Shown in pieces: positions 25,364 to 53,909 of a stretch of 64,000 nt of DNA (the stretch's first letter is position 1; each line of letters starts with the position of its first letter). The notes under the pieces are model-generated. The model saw only the letters and a list, made by a program, of their open reading frames with translations. It searched no databases and was not told where the DNA came from. A program made the translations under genes and the position numbers. This DNA is from Minisyncoccota bacterium (GTDB taxonomy: Bacteria > Patescibacteriota > Minisyncoccia > Phycocordibacterales > SBAW01): contig JAGOUZ010000002.1 of assembly GCA_018060985.1 (NCBI GenBank), positions 26,396 to 90,395 on the forward strand, written 5' to 3'.

Positions 25364-25392
25364 AAAAAATCCCCCGAAGGGGATTTTTTATT
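25364..25392. terminator. Bidirectional intrinsic terminator between convergent pth and rpsA
   Basis: AAAAAATCCCC-cgaa-GGGGATTTTTT: a hairpin flanked by A/T runs on both sides. Confidence 0.7.
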
Positions 25393-26491
25393 ATTTCTTG
25401 TCTCCTGCGTAGGCGAGCGCCATGCGCATTTCTTTAGGTTCAAAGAGGGAAATAGTGAAGGGGTAGCGCTTGCCGAGCTCAAGGTTTGAGCGAAGCTTCT
25501 CCTCGGTGCCAAACTCGCTCACATGCACTAGGCCTGCAATGCCTTCCTCGATAGAGGCAAGTGCGCCGTGCTTGTTGAACTTGATAACCACGCCCTCAAC
25601 TTTGTCTCCCTTGTTGTACTTGGTTTGTGCAGTAATCCAAGGATTTTCCTTAAGCTGTTTAACCGAAAGGGATACCTTGCCGTCTTTAATATCGATGATT
25701 TTAACCTTGGTTTTATCTCCAACCTTAAAGAAGTGGCGAGGATCATCCACGAGGCCCCAGTCGATTTCAGAAATGTGGACCAAGCCTTCAAGACCCTCTT
25801 CAAGCTTAACGAAGACGCCGAAGTCCACCATGCCGGTAACCTCGCCCTCAACCGTGTCGCCCATCTGGTAGTTAGCAATGAGCTCCTTCTTCTCTTTGTC
25901 GTCGATGCCTTTCTCCGAGAAGATCAGTTTGCCTTCTTTTGGCTGTGCGCCAATTATCGAAACCGGGATACGGGTACCAACAAGCTTGCGGAGTTCGTCC
26001 AAGATCTTGTCTTTGTCGCCATCGGTAACGCGAGGGTAGTGCTCTGCCTTAAGTTGTGAAGCGGGGAGGAAGCCAGCGATACCCTGCCATTCGAGGATAA
26101 GACCTCCCTTGTTTGCCTCTTTAACCAAGAGGTCGAGAACACGCTTGTCTTTAACAGCCTCTTCTGCCTGTGCCCAAATAATGGCCTGGCGAGCTTCTTT
26201 AAGAGAAAGCTCGATATAGCCCTCGCGATGGTCGGTAGAAATTACTTTAGCGGCTACGCGGTCGCCAATGTTAGTGCGCTTAATAACCTCGCGAGCGTTC
26301 ATGTACTCGCGGCCGTAAATAATGCCTGTGCCAAACGGCGCTAGGTCGATATAGAGGCGTGCGCGGTCGAGTGCGAGCACAGAGCCCTCTACAATGTCGC
26401 CCTCTTTAGGCGGCTCTGGTGCGCGATCAGAAAATCCCTGCATCAATGATACAGGTGCGTCGACCTCCTTAACGAGTTCTTTTGTTGCCAT
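25391..26491 (-). CDS. rpsA: 30S ribosomal protein S1 (short, 4 S1 domains)
   Basis: Repeated S1 OB-fold motifs (GDIVEGSV…, GDTVEGEVTGMVDFGVFVKL…, GDKVEGVVIKF…). 366 aa. Confidence 0.85.
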   Translation of the reverse strand: MATKELVKEVDAPVSLMQGFSDRAPEPPKEGDIVEGSVLALDRARLYIDLAPFGTGIIYGREYMNAREVIKRTNIGDRVAAKVISTDHREGYIELSLKEARQAIIWAQAEEAVKDKRVLDLLVKEANKGGLILEWQGIAGFLPASQLKAEHYPRVTDGDKDKILDELRKLVGTRIPVSIIGAQPKEGKLIFSEKGIDDKEKKELIANYQMGDTVEGEVTGMVDFGVFVKLEEGLEGLVHISEIDWGLVDDPRHFFKVGDKTKVKIIDIKDGKVSLSVKQLKENPWITAQTKYNKGDKVEGVVIKFNKHGALASIEEGIAGLVHVSEFGTEEKLRSNLELGKRYPFTISLFEPKEMRMALAYAGDKK

Positions 26492-26494
26492 AAT

Positions 26495-26690
26495 TATTTG
26501 GTTGTACGACGGGGGTCCAAGGTCTGGATTTACTCCCGCGCGCGTTAACTGTTAATAAAGGTAAACCTTTATTGCCTAGCGGAGCGAGAAAGCTTGCTTT
26601 CTACTGCGGAGCGACGGCAATATCGGGTTCTTCCGATATTGCTGGGCAATATATATCAGAAATAGGGAAGGCGCAAGTATAAAAAGAAGG
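26495..26690 (-). promoter_or_regulatory. Structured 5' leader/promoter region of rpsA (candidate autoregulatory element)
   Basis: Several perfect hairpins: GCAATATCGG-gttcttc-CCGATATTGC, AAAGG-taaa-CCTTT, and a direct repeat GCGGAGCGA flanking an AGAAAGC/GCTTTCT palindrome. No canonical SD before the rpsA ATG. Confidence 0.3.
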
Positions 26691-26726
26691 CCCCGACGAC
26701 GCATGGTGCGTGGTCGGGGCTGGTTT
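26690..26726 (-). terminator. Intrinsic terminator (minus strand) downstream of small ORF A
   Basis: Minus-strand hairpin AGCCCCGAC-cacgcaccatgcgtc-GTCGGGGC followed by a TTCTTTTTA T-tract. Confidence 0.6.
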
Positions 26727-26846
26727 CGGGGGGGTGGTACTTTCGACTTAACGAGCCCTGGGGCTTTGCCTGTTCTCGCCGTAGCGTGAAAAGCCTTAAC
26801 CTTTGGGTTCTGCGTCGGGTTCCTCCTGAAATGTGCGGCGTTGCGA

Positions 26847-26972
26847 TCAGCCGGTGGCGGTCACCTTGTAGCCGGCGGTGAAGGCGTCGACGCAGTGGGC
26901 GCCGTTCTTGGCCTGGTCGAGGACGTGGATGGTCGGAAGCGGCGGGCCGGTTCCGACGAAGCGATTGCGCAT
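26847..26972 (-). CDS. Small ORF A (41 aa) with canonical SD; hypothetical peptide
   Basis: Translation MRNRFVGTGPPLPTIHVLDQAKNGAHCVDAFTAGYKVTATG. AGGAGG lies 6 nt upstream of the ATG. Own TTGACG-17-TAATTT promoter at about 27041-27069 (minus) and own terminator. It sits in the GC-rich islet and is missing from the supplied ORF track (<60 aa). Confidence 0.45.
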   Translation of the reverse strand: MRNRFVGTGPPLPTIHVLDQAKNGAHCVDAFTAGYKVTATG

Positions 26973-27094
26973 AGGGATCCTCCTGTTGCGCGACGATACC
27001 GTCTCGTCCCGAAATTGACGACGGGTGACGGATAAGAATGAAATTAACCCGCAATGCTTACGCCGTCAATAAGGGATGTAAACATTATAAAAAG

Positions 27095-27140
27095 AAAAAG
27101 GGTCCCAATGCTAAGCAAAGGGACCCTAGAATTCCTGGTT
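27095..27140 (-). terminator. Intrinsic terminator (minus strand) between small ORF B and small ORF A
   Basis: Minus-strand hairpin AGGGTCCC-tttgcttagcatt-GGGACCCT followed by TTTTTCTTTTT. Confidence 0.6.
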
Positions 27141-27318
27141 CATCCGAATTTACGGAGAGGGTGAGGTCACACCCTTAGGAATTCTGATGGCGCGAACGCC
27201 CGCTGCAGATCAGCGGGACGAGACGCCGCGGCCGTGGATGGCGACGCCGGCATGAGCCGGGACGACCACCGAGCCGTCGACCTGGTCGATCGAGCCGAAG
27301 CTGATGAGAAAGAAGACC

Positions 27319-27462
27319 CTACACATCGCCCGCGTCGGCGTCATGGCCGATGGCGATCGTTTCGAGGCCGCCGGAGCCGCCGGAATCGTCGGCGCCGACC
27401 CTGGACCACTCGCTCACGGTATGGGGGGTGTTGGGACCCCCGGAATCGAAGAACTTCCGCAT
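27319..27462 (-). CDS. Small ORF B (47 aa) with canonical SD; hypothetical acidic peptide, N-terminus paralogous to small ORF A
   Basis: Translation MRKFFDSGGPNTPHTVSEWSRVGADDSGGSGGLETIAIGHDADAGDV. GGAGG lies 6 nt upstream of the ATG. The listed 68-aa ORF has an N-terminal extension without SD. Confidence 0.5.
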   Translation of the reverse strand: MRKFFDSGGPNTPHTVSEWSRVGADDSGGSGGLETIAIGHDADAGDV

Positions 27463-27513
27463 GCGAACCTCCGTTCGTTGGAAGGGCGGAATTGCCCTGT
27501 TCGATGCACCAAT

Positions 27514-27542
27514 AATATACACCACCCCAGTTTTCCTGTCAA
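27514..27542 (-). promoter_or_regulatory. Sigma70-type promoter of small ORF B
   Basis: Minus strand TTGACA-17 nt-TATATT, with an A/T-rich UP-like tract upstream. Confidence 0.5.
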
Positions 27543-27595
27543 GTCAAGTGGGAAGGGTATTAAAAATGGCCAAAAATAATGCTTTTTTGGCATTT

Positions 27596-27629
27596 ATAAA
27601 AAACGAGCCCGGCAGATAGTCTGCCGGGC
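27596..27629 (-). terminator. Intrinsic terminator (minus strand) downstream of the 91-aa ORF
   Basis: Minus-strand hairpin GCCCGGCAGA-ctat-CTGCCGGGC followed by TCGTTTTTTATAAA. Confidence 0.6.
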
Positions 27630-27645
27630 GAAAGGTGGTGCTGGT

Positions 27646-27921
27646 CTACAGCTGGACGGTGTAGCTTCGGAGCTCCCGTATCTTTTCTTTGCGGCGCAGA
27701 TCTTCGTTGTCGATCTCTTGCTCCGCCTTGGGCAGGTGATCGTCGAATCTCTCGTCGGGCTGTTTGAAGGCCGGCTTCTTGGGGGGAGGGTTCCCCTCAG
27801 AGTTGCCCATAGTTGTGAAGGGCAGAAAGTCTGGATCGTCGCCCACCGAACAGAGTCCGGGGGGCGGGCTAAGGGAAGAGAGGAGATCGCAACCTCCCAA
27901 CATCGCCTGTAGCAATCGCAT
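27646..27921 (-). CDS. Hypothetical 91-aa Pro-rich acidic protein (no TM, no recognisable family)
   Basis: Start at the internal ATG, preceded by AAGGAGG with a 7-nt spacer (…CAAGGAGGACACGTGATG). The listed ORF begins at an upstream TTG. Product MRLLQAMLGGCDLLSSLSPPPGLCSVGDDPDFLPF…EQEIDNEDLRRKEKIRELRSYTVQL. Own promoter (TTGACG-18-TACAGT, minus, about 27992-28021) and terminator. Confidence 0.45.
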   Translation of the reverse strand: MRLLQAMLGGCDLLSSLSPPPGLCSVGDDPDFLPFTTMGNSEGNPPPKKPAFKQPDERFDDHLPKAEQEIDNEDLRRKEKIRELRSYTVQL

Positions 27922-28061
27922 CACGTGTCCTCCTTGGATGTACGTATCCCTCGTCGTCGACTTCAATTAAGAAATCGGAGGGTATCTACCCACTGTATCT
28001 CTGTGTCACTCGCAGCGTCAATGAGTTAGGGGTGCATATGTAAAATTAAGTTAAGAGACGG

Positions 28062-28090
28062 TTGAGTTTTGACTCAAAATTTGCTATAAT
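28062..28090 (+). promoter_or_regulatory. Sigma70-type promoter of the MBL-fold gene, with overlapping palindrome
   Basis: TTGAGT-17-TATAAT. The -35 lies inside the perfect palindrome TTGAGT-tttg-ACTCAA. The ATG at 28097 follows the -10 by about 6 nt, suggesting a leaderless or near-leaderless mRNA. Confidence 0.45.
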
Positions 28091-28096
28091 AAGGCA

Positions 28097-28717
28097 ATGG
28101 TTATTACCTATTTGGGAGGCGAATGCTTCAAGATTACCCAAGGCGACCTCACTATAGCTCTCAATCCTCCCTCCAAGGATTCTTCATTTAAGGCATCAAA
28201 GTTTGGCTCTGATATTGTGCTCACCACGCTCAATCACGAAGACTTTAATGGCGCCGAACAGATGTCTTTTGGCGAACGCGAGCCTTTTGTTATTACCGGC
28301 CCAGGCGAGTATGAGGTACGGGGCGTCTCGGTGCGCGGCTTTGGTGCTGAGACCGAGTACGGCGGCGAGAAGGGTATTAATACTATTTATAGTATTGCCC
28401 TCGAGGGTATGGACCTGGTCTTTCTTGGTGCCCTGGGCAGCAGTACACTACCGCAGGCAGCTAAGGCAGAGCTCGACGAAATCGACATACTCTTTTTGCC
28501 AATCGGCGGTGATGGCGTTCTGGACCATGCGGAGGCATACAAGCTTGCGGTACAATTAGAGCCGAAGGTGGTCGTGCCTATGCACTACACGCCAGAGACG
28601 TTAAAAAAGTTTCTTAAAGAGGCCGGCGAGGAGATTACACCGGTAGACAAGCTGACCTTAAAGCGTAAAGACCTCGAAGGTAAGGAGGGGGAAATAATTG
28701 TGCTCTCCCAAAACTAA
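28097..28717 (+). CDS. MBL-fold metallo-hydrolase-like protein
   Basis: 206 aa. Beta-lactamase-fold pattern (…DIVLTTLNHEDFNG…LFLPIGGDGVLDHAEA…VVVPMHY). Confidence 0.55.
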   Translation: MVITYLGGECFKITQGDLTIALNPPSKDSSFKASKFGSDIVLTTLNHEDFNGAEQMSFGEREPFVITGPGEYEVRGVSVRGFGAETEYGGEKGINTIYSIALEGMDLVFLGALGSSTLPQAAKAELDEIDILFLPIGGDGVLDHAEAYKLAVQLEPKVVVPMHYTPETLKKFLKEAGEEITPVDKLTLKRKDLEGKEGEIIVLSQN

Positions 28718-41292: not shown

Positions 41293-43131
41293 ATGTGTGG
41301 CATCGTAGCCATTATTGCCCCTAAGGGGGATATCGCTCCCGTGCTGCTCGACTGCATCAAGCGGCTCGAGTACCGCGGGTATGACAGTGCCGGCGTGTCC
41401 GTCGCCAACGGCGGCGACCTGCAGGTTCTGAAGGCGGTTGGCCCTGTGGCCAATCTCAAGAACCGGTTCGACACCTCGCCGGTTCATGGCAACCGCGGCA
41501 TCATCCACACCAGGTGGGCGACCCACGGTGAAGTGACCGAAGAGAACGCGCATCCGCACGTCTCGAACGACGGCACTATTTCCGTCGTGCACAACGGCAT
41601 CATCGAGAACCACGACATGCTTCGCCGTCGCCTGATGAGTGCGGGGTACGTGTTCCACTCGCAGACCGACACAGAGGTCATCCCGAACCTCATCGAGCTG
41701 AAGCTCCTCGAAGGGGCCAACTGCCTCGAAGACGCGGTTGCCAGTGCTGTCGAAGATCTCGACGGCGCCTACGCAATCGCGGTCGTCTCGTCGATGCATC
41801 CGGAAATCGTGATCGCAAGGCAGAGCAGCGACCTGTTTCTCGGCCTCAACGGCGGCACGCACTACGTCGCGTCCGACGACCTCGCGTTCGCCGGCTATGC
41901 TTCGCACACCGTCCCGATCAAGGACGGCGACATCCTGACCCTCAAGAACGACGGAACCTACCACTTCCGCGAACACGATGCAGCGCGCAAGCGCGACATC
42001 GAAGTGTTCGACGCCGATTCTACCAGCGTCGACAAGGGCACGTACGACTCCTTCATGCGGAAGGAGATCTACGACCAGCCGAACGCGCTCAAGCTCGCCA
42101 CTGCCGGCCGGATCACTCTGGACGGCGAGGTGGTGTTGGGCGGCATCCGCAACGCGGAGGAACGTCTCGCTTGCTCGCGCATGATCGAGTTCGTCGCGTG
42201 CGGCACGTCGCTCTACGCCTCGACGATCGGAGCGCAGATGATCGAAGGTCTTGCGCGGATACCTGCACGGGCCAGCCACGCCTCGGAGTTTCAGTATCGC
42301 GATCCGATTCTGAACTTCCACGACGCGGTCATCGCCGTTTCGCAGTCGGGCTCTACGGCCGACACGCTGAACGCCGCGCGCCTTGCCATGAAGGAAGGCG
42401 CGCTGACGCTCGGCATCAACAACCGGGTCGGGTCATCGCTTTCTCGCGAGACCGGCGCTGGTATCTACCTCCATGCGGGGTCGGAGATCGGCGTCGCATC
42501 CACCAAGGCTTTCACCGCGCAAGTTGCGGTGATGGCACTTCTTGCAGCTCGGCTTGCTACTCTTGCCGGCCAGGGCCATCAGCCTCGCGTTGCGCGGCTG
42601 GTGCGTGGACTCCGCGAACTTCCGGACAAAGTTGCTCTCGCACTCACGTGCGAACAGCAGGTCAAGGAGATCGCGCAGATCTACAAAGACGCGAAGAGCG
42701 TCTTCTGTCTCGGTCGGGGCTTTGCGGTGCCGCTCGCATACGAGGGCGCCCTGAAGCTGAAGGAGATCGGCCAGCTCAATGCAGAGGGGTATCCCGGCGG
42801 CGAGCTCAAGCACGGCCCACTGGCGCTCATCGAGCGGGGCGTGCCCGTCATCGCGGTGATCTGCAAGGGTGACGGACTCGAGGGGAAGATGATCTCCAAC
42901 CTCGAGGAAGTTCGCGCACGTGGCGGCGATGTTATCGTCATCACGAGTGGAATGGTCGCGCTTCCGGATGGTCTTGCAAAGCACGTCATCGTGCTTCCGC
43001 AGGTCCCGCCGGAACTGATCTCGGTCATCGGCGCGATCCCGTACCAGCTTCTCGCGTACCATGTGGGAGTGGCACAAGGGTTCGACGTCGACAAGCCGCG
43101 GAATCTCGCCAAGTCGGTGACGGTCGAGTAA
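41293..43131 (+). CDS. glmS: Glutamine--fructose-6-phosphate aminotransferase (isomerising)
   Basis: N-terminal MCGIVAII (Ntn Cys), two SIS domains, C-terminal …PLAYHVGVAQGFDVDKPRNLAKSVTVE. Strongly GC/GC3-enriched relative to neighbours. SD GAAGGAGA upstream. Confidence 0.95.
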   Translation: MCGIVAIIAPKGDIAPVLLDCIKRLEYRGYDSAGVSVANGGDLQVLKAVGPVANLKNRFDTSPVHGNRGIIHTRWATHGEVTEENAHPHVSNDGTISVVHNGIIENHDMLRRRLMSAGYVFHSQTDTEVIPNLIELKLLEGANCLEDAVASAVEDLDGAYAIAVVSSMHPEIVIARQSSDLFLGLNGGTHYVASDDLAFAGYASHTVPIKDGDILTLKNDGTYHFREHDAARKRDIEVFDADSTSVDKGTYDSFMRKEIYDQPNALKLATAGRITLDGEVVLGGIRNAEERLACSRMIEFVACGTSLYASTIGAQMIEGLARIPARASHASEFQYRDPILNFHDAVIAVSQSGSTADTLNAARLAMKEGALTLGINNRVGSSLSRETGAGIYLHAGSEIGVASTKAFTAQVAVMALLAARLATLAGQGHQPRVARLVRGLRELPDKVALALTCEQQVKEIAQIYKDAKSVFCLGRGFAVPLAYEGALKLKEIGQLNAEGYPGGELKHGPLALIERGVPVIAVICKGDGLEGKMISNLEEVRARGGDVIVITSGMVALPDGLAKHVIVLPQVPPELISVIGAIPYQLLAYHVGVAQGFDVDKPRNLAKSVTVE

Positions 43132-53192: not shown

Positions 53193-53909
53193 TCAGGCCG
53201 CTTCGAGTTCGGCTTTGATTTCCTGCGCGGCCTTCAGATTGGTGTACTTTGGCGGCGGGTGCAGAATAGGCCGGCCAACCACGATGTAGTCGGCACCAGC
53301 CTGTGCCGCCTGCGTCGGAGTCGTAACGCGCTTCTGCTCGTCCTTGCCGACAGTCCAGAGCGGGCGGATAGCCGGCGTTACTATGGTCACGTCCGGGTAT
53401 CGTGCACGCAATACCTGCGCTTCTTGGGCAGAGCAGACGAATCCTCGGATGCCGCAGCTGTAGGCGATCTCGGCGAATTGCATCACCACTGAATGGGAAT
53501 TGCGATCAAAACGTAGCAAACACGCATCGTCGTTGAGATCGGTAAGAGCGGTCACAGCCAGTGCAACTGTTTCCGTTCCCTCACACGCTTTCACGGCAGC
53601 CTCAAGTGCTGCATTGCTGGCTTGGGCGTGCAAGGTGAAGAATTTGTTGCCTCGCTTCACAATGTTGCGTGCTGCATCGCCAACAGTGTTGGCAACATCA
53701 AGGAGCTTTATGTCCCACATGGTGTTTTTCTTGCATTCACGCGCTCGGATACGAAAGTGCCGAGCTAACGTCTCGCCGAATCCGTCCTCGTTGGTTATAG
53801 CCGCGAGACCAATCTTGACCATGTCGATCTCAGGTGCCGTTTCTTTGATGAGGCGCATACCGAGGTCGTAGTCGTTGGTATCGCAAGCAAAGATCAGTTG
53901 GGTCTTCAT
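53193..53909 (-). CDS. pyrF: Orotidine 5'-phosphate decarboxylase
   Basis: LIFACDTND…, catalytic WDIKLLDVANTV, C-terminal …GADYIVVGRPI. Confidence 0.8.
   Translation of the reverse strand: MKTQLIFACDTNDYDLGMRLIKETAPEIDMVKIGLAAITNEDGFGETLARHFRIRARECKKNTMWDIKLLDVANTVGDAARNIVKRGNKFFTLHAQASNAALEAAVKACEGTETVALAVTALTDLNDDACLLRFDRNSHSVVMQFAEIAYSCGIRGFVCSAQEAQVLRARYPDVTIVTPAIRPLWTVGKDEQKRVTTPTQAAQAGADYIVVGRPILHPPPKYTNLKAAQEIKAELEAA

Follow-up and report, generated by a model that had tools for sequence, protein, structure and literature searches.

What occupies the spacer between rpsA and the divergent gene of a metallo-beta-lactamase (MBL)-fold protein in a genome of the Parcubacteria/Paceibacteria (candidate phyla radiation, CPR), near "Candidatus Adlerbacteria", is the question raised by the locus described here. 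The locus lies in a 64-kb stretch of DNA, hereafter the window, to which all positions refer. The gene rpsA, with four S1 domains, is found at 25391-26491 on the minus strand and the MBL-fold gene (PF13483) at 28097-28717 on the plus strand; the 1.6-kb spacer separating them houses a G+C-rich islet (26650-28025). A preliminary description had read there three self-contained transcription units for small proteins, all on the minus strand and each with promoter, Shine-Dalgarno (SD) sequence, short open reading frame (sORF) and terminator, and had taken the whole for a compositionally foreign patch. The observation is confirmed, well beyond chance, and its interpretation was right in part.

The favoured explanation, which is considered moderately probable, is a slot with two layers, in which a resident gene, sORF1, is accompanied by acquired, SD-led units 2 and 3, working as accessory microproteins. 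The first layer would be sORF1, passed on by vertical descent within a small clade along with the promoter, 5' stem-loop, SD and terminator that belong to it, and the second an insertion of about 0.9 kb directly behind the unit 1 terminator (T1), adding units 2 and 3. Each unit would lead from a sigma70-type promoter through a short structured 5' untranslated region (5'UTR) and SD-dependent initiation, unlike the host genes, to an intrinsic terminator, while a fourth frame, sORF2b, would probably be translationally coupled to the overlapping sORF2. The predicted products are small, soluble and largely disordered, including an acidic sORF1 protein with a C-terminal helix and an acidic sORF2 protein paired with a basic sORF2b protein; as they are too small for catalysis, they are taken to act by binding other macromolecules, in the manner of fast-evolving accessory microproteins. 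The analysis establishes the anatomy of the units and their synteny, the limits of the insertion, a coding signature and conserved expression signals. To judge from sequence, the units would be transcribed and translated and would play a role in the cell.

The three units and their initiation signals

The units were sought with a detector requiring a promoter with at least 8 of 12 matches, an SD-ATG pair, an open reading frame (ORF) of 35-120 amino acids, a hairpin at least as stable as -12 kcal/mol and a T-run. This energy-based version replaced an earlier, stricter one, which had missed units 2 and 3 through its terminator and -10 criteria. On both strands of the window it gave exactly three matches, namely the three units of the islet, all on the minus strand, while 300 first-order Markov sequences of islet composition yielded one match in total (0.003 per islet length). 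In all three units the -35 and -10 boxes, an SD 5-9 nt before the ATG, the frame, and a GC hairpin with T-tract follow in order on one strand, and every signal named in the preliminary description could be located. For unit 1, these are the promoter P1, TTGACG-18-TACAGT (27992-28021), recognised by motif scan and by its conserved hexamers, the SD AAGGAGG (27929-27935) 7 nt before the ATG at 27921, sORF1 (27646-27921, 91 amino acids) and T1, found by motif scan as the hairpin GCCCGGCAGA-CTA-TCTGCCGGGC with a T-tract (27597-27629). Unit 2 comprises the promoter P2, TTGACTTGACA -17 nt- TATATT (27514-27547; -35 box TTGACA, 11 of 12 matches), which is the best promoter site in the 7 kb scanned, a GGAGG (27472-27468), sORF2 (27319-27462, 47 amino acids) and the terminator T2 (hairpin at 27127-27099, plus T-tract), which ends the unit. 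Finally, unit 3 has a weak promoter, P3, TTGACG-17-TAATTT (27041-27069, 8 of 12 matches), the SD AGGAGG (26984-26979) 6 nt before the ATG, sORF3 (26847-26972, 41 amino acids) and the terminator T3, a 14-bp stem followed by CTTCTTTTT (26680-26720), identified by its fold and repeats. No plus-strand promoter was found in 26650-28025.

The higher G+C content that had been judged by eye is borne out by computation, with values of 0.569 in the islet, 0.514 in the window and 0.51 and 0.53 in the 5-kb flanks; moreover, the 300-nt peak of the window (0.667) falls within the islet. Five other patches of the window reach at least 0.60, all of them ordinary genes (glmS, a methyltransferase, an SPFH gene, a gene with a phosphoribosyltransferase domain and pyrF). 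The period-3 G+C signal is strong exactly in the sORF frames, and the G+C content at third codon positions (GC3) is 0.72 in sORF1 (about 0.8 in its C-terminal half), 0.85 in sORF2, 0.87 in sORF2b and 0.90 in sORF3, the native reference from the 41 long genes of the window being 0.53 ± 0.07, with a maximum of 0.79. On this signature the frames are coding, since a strong period-3 GC3 can arise only from coding. Thus, the units are self-contained and in the frames first named, but the ORFs number at least four, the additional one being sORF2b (27326-27210). Neither paralogues nor repeat copies of the islet were found elsewhere in the window. All three units are also present in two other sequencing runs, one identical (L083, in the numbering of homologous loci used here) and one differing at about 1% of positions (L001). 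Furthermore, the earlier statement that only spurious Arg-rich ORFs are annotated here does not hold for the public records, where the sORFs already figure as hypothetical proteins (sORF1 as MBP9710853.1, sORF2 and sORF3 in 68- and 41-amino-acid forms in NCBI and Logan).

A marked contrast with the host genes lies in the initiation signals. A strong SD precedes all three sORFs, and only 2 of the 41 native long genes, even with alternative starts allowed. The two are glmS (41293-43131, GC3 0.79) and pyrF (53193-53909, GC3 0.63), both GC-rich and probably horizontally acquired, so that the combination of an SD and high GC3 seems to be a marker of acquisition in this genome. These genes resemble the sORFs in both features, and differ from them in being full-length enzymes with clear homologues, whereas the sORFs lack both homologues and a recognisable donor. 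In addition, seven of the 41 native genes look leaderless, with a -10 box close to consensus 6-10 nt ahead of their start codon, the MBL gene (TATAAT-6-ATG) being one of them; examples of such sites are at 28084-28099, 19935, 24794, 49446, 54123 and 62337. Just 48% of Parcubacteria were found to have the anti-SD motif (Tsurumaki et al., RNA 2022, PMC9297842), and the scarcity of native SDs in this window, outside which the 16S gene lies, fits its reported absence in many of them. The opposition of accessory sORFs with an SD to core genes that are SD-less or leaderless bears on the anti-SD loss reported for about half of the Parcubacteria (PMC9297842), and allows a test of whether a special class of genes has retained SD-dependent initiation.

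As regards the products, none matches a known family or gives a confident fold. The lack of a recognisable fold, transmembrane (TM) segment or signal peptide noted at the outset agrees with family searches, hydropathy and AlphaFold2 (AF2). Pfam, NCBIfam, PADLOC and PHROGs, searched at E up to 1, gave no matches for any sORF or for two distant sORF1 homologues, and a hydrophobic or TM toxin was not found, the maximum 15-residue hydropathy of the sORF products being at most 1.4. The sORF1 protein is acidic and lacks TM segments, and AF2 renders it (predicted local distance difference test score, pLDDT, 62) as a disordered chain with a helix at residues 65-90; sORF3 (pLDDT 49) has no predicted structure. 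Word-indexed searches of 5.8 billion protein clusters returned only self matches for sORF2 and sORF3, scans of the JGI metagenomes, one using the sORF2 alignment and one the P2 promoter pattern, found no relatives in either case, and viral contigs gave no matches to sORF1 or sORF2. The islet gave only a 46-nt chance match by blastn against plasmids and phages. With Rfam, only tRNAs were recognised in the window at gathering score and only chance-level matches in the islet at E up to 10, with none in eight related loci.

Unit 1 and its family

The idea of a foreign patch stands for units 2 and 3, which look acquired by their GC3, their SDs and their absence from L084-type relatives, but not for unit 1, which is syntenic and, to all appearances, vertically inherited. 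A homologue of sORF1 with 58% identity lies next to the MBL gene of another species (L002), and P0002 is included in the family. In L003, the closest GTDB species (87% amino-acid identity in MBL, 96% in rpsA), the homologue has 109 amino acids, with a different N-terminus and the same C-terminus (MRSFTVEL). Exhaustive HMMER searches with the sORF1 alignment added two more distant members, P0008 (92 amino acids) and P0006 (116 amino acids), and in their loci (L084-L088, L089) these are again placed between MBL and rpsA. When the family model was applied to every ORF of 89 loci, its members were confined to the five lineages. The GC3 of the homologues is 0.61-0.62, close to the native value. This synteny between MBL and rpsA indicates a vertically inherited family and not an import; on that evidence, sORF1 is a resident, clade-specific gene rather than a foreign one. 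The cassette does therefore recur in relatives as far as unit 1 (five lineages) and unit 2 (L003) are concerned, whereas unit 3 is confined to this lineage.

Two further observations concern the reading frame. The motif GLCSVG is conserved across the family, and the C-terminal motif (L/M)RS(Y/H/F)TV(Q/E)L is written with synonymous codons (CTC/CTG, CGA/CGG, AGC/AGT, GTC/GTT, CTG/CTC) and followed by differing stop codons, which argues for selection at the protein level. Moreover, 1-nt indels in the 5'UTR break a longer frame with a TTG start, which points to the ATG as the start. Judged from the synonymous changes and these indels, sORF1 would be translated. A lipoprotein is not indicated, as the Cys of MLGGC stands at residue 11, where a lipobox needs 15-35, and a hydrophobic core is missing.

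The expression signals of unit 1 are conserved as well. The pattern TTGAC(G/C), an 18-nt spacer and TA(C/G/T)(A/T)GT is common to the window, L001, L002, L084 and L089, while the letters of the spacer vary freely, with seven single-nucleotide polymorphisms (SNPs) between two strains. The 68-nt 5'UTR (fold z = -2.6) contains a 5'-terminal stem-loop, CCCUC-CGAUUUC...GAAGUCG-ACGAC-GAGGG (27948-27982, minus strand), identified by fold and covariation: across four lineages 95.7% of cells are paired and two pairs are altered on both sides, a result equalled by 6 of 500 shuffles. Conservation extends to the internal loop NNGAC on the 3' side, possibly a binding site. The SD is retained in L002, L003 and L089 and is weaker in L084, and the T1 hairpin has a homologue in every lineage, that of L084 being identical.

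Stabilising stem-loops at the 5' end of bacterial mRNAs are known, for example, in the ompA 5'UTR of E. coli and in the aprE and ermC leaders of B. subtilis. The sORF1 hairpin resembles them in lying less than about 10 nt from the predicted 5' end, upstream of the SD, and in showing compensatory changes; it differs from them in that the 5' end of its mRNA is predicted from sequence alone and in its conserved NNGAC internal loop.

Part of unit 1 appears to have a more recent history. A block of 195 nt that begins at the -10 box and reaches codon 38 of sORF1 (28000-27806; L002 545-745) is 90-97% identical between the window and L002; the MBL genes of the two are 81% identical, and 59% at third positions. 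As the block varies in L084 and L089 and strain SNPs are not depleted in it, it is read as a tract of recombination rather than as functional constraint, and it is probably a recent one. The block was also considered as an RNase P-, 6S- or other known RNA, which was rejected for want of an Rfam match and for a fold z of only -1.7, and an antisense ORF within it (27764-27970, plus strand), lacking SD and promoter, is taken as a by-product.

Units 2 and 3 behind the unit 1 terminator

Alignment with L084, L003 and L089 delimits a lineage-specific insertion at about 26690-27596 (minus strand, G+C content 0.58), which holds units 2 and 3 and lies between T1 and the rpsA promoter region. In L084, T1 is followed directly by ATACTTGCACC and the promoter and leader of rpsA, while in the window ATACTTGCACC comes after T3, which leaves about 0.9 kb extra. 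Units 2 and 3 are absent from L084-L088 and L089; L003 has unit 2 without unit 3. The extreme GC3 and the SD-led starts suggest that both units come from a GC-rich, SD-using background and were most likely acquired horizontally, so that a foreign origin may be inferred for these two. The tail of T3, TTCTTTTTATA, is that of T2 (11 nt shared), and the tail sequence common to T1, T2 and T3 is TTTTTATA. Apart from these tails, the only repeat found in the islet is a perfect 12-nt inverted repeat, CGTCTCGTCCCG / CGGGACGAGACG, at 27225-27214 and 27011-27000, which flanks T2 and P3 (about 0.1 such pairs expected by chance in a region of this size). On this picture, the locus would be a fixed slot where genes are gained, duplicated, left to decay and replaced by other cargo.

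In unit 2, the 5'UTR (27463-27507) forms a hairpin, AGGGC/GCCCT (27498-27483), ahead of the GGAGG, and the same 5'UTR position in L002 reads GAGAGC/GCUCUC, which amounts to one compensatory pair; P2 itself is 82% identical in L003. The high-GC3 phase shifts frame exactly at the end of sORF2 and thereby reveals sORF2b (27210-27326, minus strand, 38 amino acids), whose ATG overlaps the sORF2 stop by 8 nt (ATGTGTAG) and which has no SD of its own. The L003 counterpart of sORF2 has 43 amino acids, 49% identity and in-frame indels of 3 and 9 nt, and is followed by a 30-amino-acid sORF2b (GC3 0.90) with the start/stop overlap kept (ATGCGTAG). Downstream, a structured 3' tail (27086-27209) consists of a multibranch hairpin closed by GAAUUCCU/AGGAAUUC and then T2. 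From the sORF2 stop to the T2 T-tract (27320-27090) the folding energy is -104.9 kcal/mol, against -77.6 for shuffles (z = -5.9); the 180-nt structured region first described thus does fold far beyond shuffles, but it is partly the fourth, overlapping ORF. In L002, a P2-type promoter/5'UTR module (TTGACTTGAC...) stands before an ORF that is unrelated and encodes a signal peptide; no DNA homology between the two cargoes was detected. That this ORF is a frameshifted sORF2 homologue was rejected, as its local alignment was no better than codon-shuffled controls.

The pairing of sORF2 with sORF2b could suggest a miniature, co-translated two-component module, of the antitoxin-toxin or chaperone-effector kind. 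Type I and II toxin-antitoxin systems likewise have small ORFs with strong signals, and in both species an acidic first ORF (isoelectric point, pI, 4.4 in the window and 4.1 in L003) is joined through the 8-nt overlap to a basic second one (pI 8.0 and 10.7). However, products of 47 and 38 amino acids are far below the size of known type II partners, PADLOC, Pfam and NCBIfam matches are lacking, sORF2b is barely conserved (52% at the nucleotide level) and is without its own SD, and the islet has neither a hydrophobic or TM toxin nor an antisense promoter. Such a module is therefore regarded as very unlikely. More generally, the toxin/antitoxin, peptide-precursor and anti-host roles proposed at first met with no positive evidence in the family, defence, neighbourhood and viral-contig searches.

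Several results weigh against the two-layer slot with working microproteins. That an ORF has survived counts for little as evidence in GC-rich DNA. When the window is compared with L003, the differences in sORF2 are distributed as 8/13/11 over codon positions 1/2/3, with 2 synonymous and 22 non-synonymous codon changes, while the same comparison of the MBL gene gives 24/10/78, with 60 and 27, the selection comparisons drawing on 2-5 sequences; as far as these substitutions tell, the sORF2 peptide is without detectable purifying selection outside short blocks. There are three such blocks, codons 1-9 with 93% nucleotide identity, GADDSG with 90% and the overlap region at the C-terminus with 82%, and in all of them conservation includes third positions; neighbouring segments drop to 24-58%. 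Within sORF1, a GC-rich hairpin encoding PPGLCSVG (27840-27866, minus strand, -18.6 kcal/mol) is nucleotide-invariant across lineages, third positions included, bar one loop base. With conserved blocks of both sORFs fixed at third positions, a constraint at the RNA level is possible. Furthermore, sORF2 has a homologue in L003 only and sORF3 none anywhere searched, and no donor for the units was found in plasmids, phages, viral contigs, JGI metagenomes or protein databases. Finally, if this lineage belongs to those without an anti-SD (PMC9297842), the SDs of the sORFs would not work as assumed.

Part of this evidence is shared by the main rival explanation, according to which units 2 and 3 are decaying remnants of the 5' ends of acquired genes, perhaps transcribed, with functionless peptides, and only sORF1 works. 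It would account for the even spread and non-synonymous excess of the sORF2 substitutions, for the frame break between sORF2 and sORF2b and for the failure of units 2 and 3 to find homologues among the 5.8 billion protein clusters. It is also in line with unit 3, where sORF3 is absent from the L003, L084 and L089 loci, and hence from the sister species, and receives no structure from AF2, and where a dead initiation remnant, CAGGAGGAACCCGACGC, with ACG in place of ATG (26812-26828, minus strand), follows downstream as a direct repeat of the sORF3 initiation region, and is found in L003 too (GGAGGAACTGACG). Decay of this kind does not readily explain, however, why P2, the 5' hairpin, the SD, the ATG, the first nine codons, GADDSG and the ATG/stop overlap have been kept between the window and L003 amid such divergent neighbours, nor why the terminators of both units are intact and no SNPs between strains occur in either. 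This explanation is held to be possible, and clearly less probable than the two-layer slot.

A second alternative is that the units mainly act as RNAs, small or dual-function, the ORFs being incidental or secondary. The compensatory changes in the unit 1 5' stem-loop, the invariant hairpin inside sORF1, the folding of the unit 2 3' region, the third-position identity of the sORF2 blocks and the same promoter/UTR module with different cargo in L002 all speak in its favour. Against it stand the strong period-3 GC3, explicable by coding only, the consensus SD and ideally spaced ATG of all units, and the synonymous variation at the sORF1 C-terminus, which signals selection on the protein; moreover, Rfam has no matches in the window or relatives, and the conserved block of unit 1 (191 nt folded) does no better than shuffles (z = -1.7). 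RNAs as the main products are thus deemed rather unlikely.

The slot in relatives and comparable systems

The two-layer slot also has to be seen in the light of related species. The density of units had seemed unusual, but the rpsA-MBL spacer is a variable slot, which measures between 0.18 and 2.35 kb in about 40 related species and contains different orphan ORFs there, with MBL next to rpsA whatever the cargo. The slot ORFs of relatives are SD-led, and several are rich in GC3 against their own MBL gene (0.79/0.54 in L004, 0.87/0.51 in L006, 0.81/0.47 in L055 and 0.74/0.46 in L059); the L002 cargo and ORFs of L004, L041, L052 and L059 carry signal or TM segments. The locus is therefore one instance of a general variable orphan-gene slot and not a unique construct.

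Orphan (ORFan) islets between core genes are a comparable case, as a core pair, rpsA/MBL, flanks a spacer differing in length and content per species, and the slot genes are short, homologue-less, fast-evolving and of deviant composition. Unlike in such islets, each sORF here has its own promoter, SD and terminator, a resident family (sORF1) sits in the slot, mobility genes, a tRNA and an att-like site are missing, and the host genes are SD-less. Integron cassettes offer another parallel, in that slot ORFs pile up serially beyond a fixed point, with an exchange of cargo between relatives (L002 versus the window and L003). However, integron cassettes are promoterless whereas each slot unit has its own promoter and terminator, and the slot is without integrase, attI and attC, its junctions sharing only the terminator tail; neither integrase nor transposase was found within ±10 kb of the islet.

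These parallels could be extended to a bolder proposal, in which the spacer is a landing pad where GC-rich foreign promoter-SD-sORF-terminator micro-cassettes are stacked behind the resident gene at the tail TTTTTATA. The promoter/5'UTR module would be kept and the cargo swapped, as in L002, and SD-dependent initiation would constitute a separate translational class. If true, this would be an integrase-less system for the capture and expression of micro-genes in an SD-less, largely leaderless genome and, should the lineage lack the anti-SD motif, it would pose the paradox of conserved yet unusable SDs. The proposal is considered unlikely. On the two-layer reading, the locus is of interest since CPR bacteria have tiny genomes, whose lineage-specific genes are mostly unannotated, and it provides a comparatively anchored case of microprotein gene gain and turnover at a fixed slot between core genes, with sORF1 as a new small-protein family with conserved expression signals. 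It is valuable mainly for the SD/leaderless contrast and for the cassette-like way in which units have accreted behind a terminator, and it does not demonstrate a new mechanism or function.

The surroundings of the islet are made up of ftsA, ftsZ, trxB, a HisRS-like gene, lepB, pth, rpsA, MBL, gyrA, NUDIX and methyltransferase genes, and the nearest species genomes by MBL protein are Adlerbacteria and Paceibacteria metagenome-assembled genomes. This neighbourhood bears on whether the sORFs are precursors of modified or exported peptides, such as bacteriocins or products like ribosomally synthesized and post-translationally modified peptides (RiPPs). They are small and Gly-rich, with GG at residues 9-10 of sORF1 and 8-9 of sORF2, and an MBL-fold gene adjoins them. 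Yet maturation, protease or export genes are not found within ±10 kb, where the neighbours are housekeeping genes, the MBL gene adjoins rpsA regardless of slot content, and the would-be leaders, of 8-10 amino acids, are too short, at least 15 being expected. Peptide precursors are accordingly disfavoured, with next to no probability attached to them.

On the rpsA side of the islet, the leader of that gene (about 90 nt, region 26492-26570) is SD-less and conserved in L003, L084, L089, L008 and L009. Just upstream of it, a hairpin-rich extra segment of about 66 nt (about 26571-26636) is present in the window lineage alone, between GCAATA direct repeats. At the corresponding side of L089 (6440-6700), a perfect palindrome, CCCAATATCAAGG...CCTTGATATTGGG, lies between the terminator of the sORF1 homologue and rpsA, ahead of a TATAAT promoter and some 190 nt devoid of ORFs; this region, without Rfam match, may be a candidate unannotated small RNA. 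Among the cargoes of other slots, the ORF of L059 has 403 amino acids and a weak LysM match, another Adlerbacteria slot family of 39 amino acids (L005, L010) reads MGTIxRP...NGGTxP...GKTGxxPSWxR, and the longer slot ORFs of L062 and L056 bear the related motifs PPNGSTW and NPGTWP.

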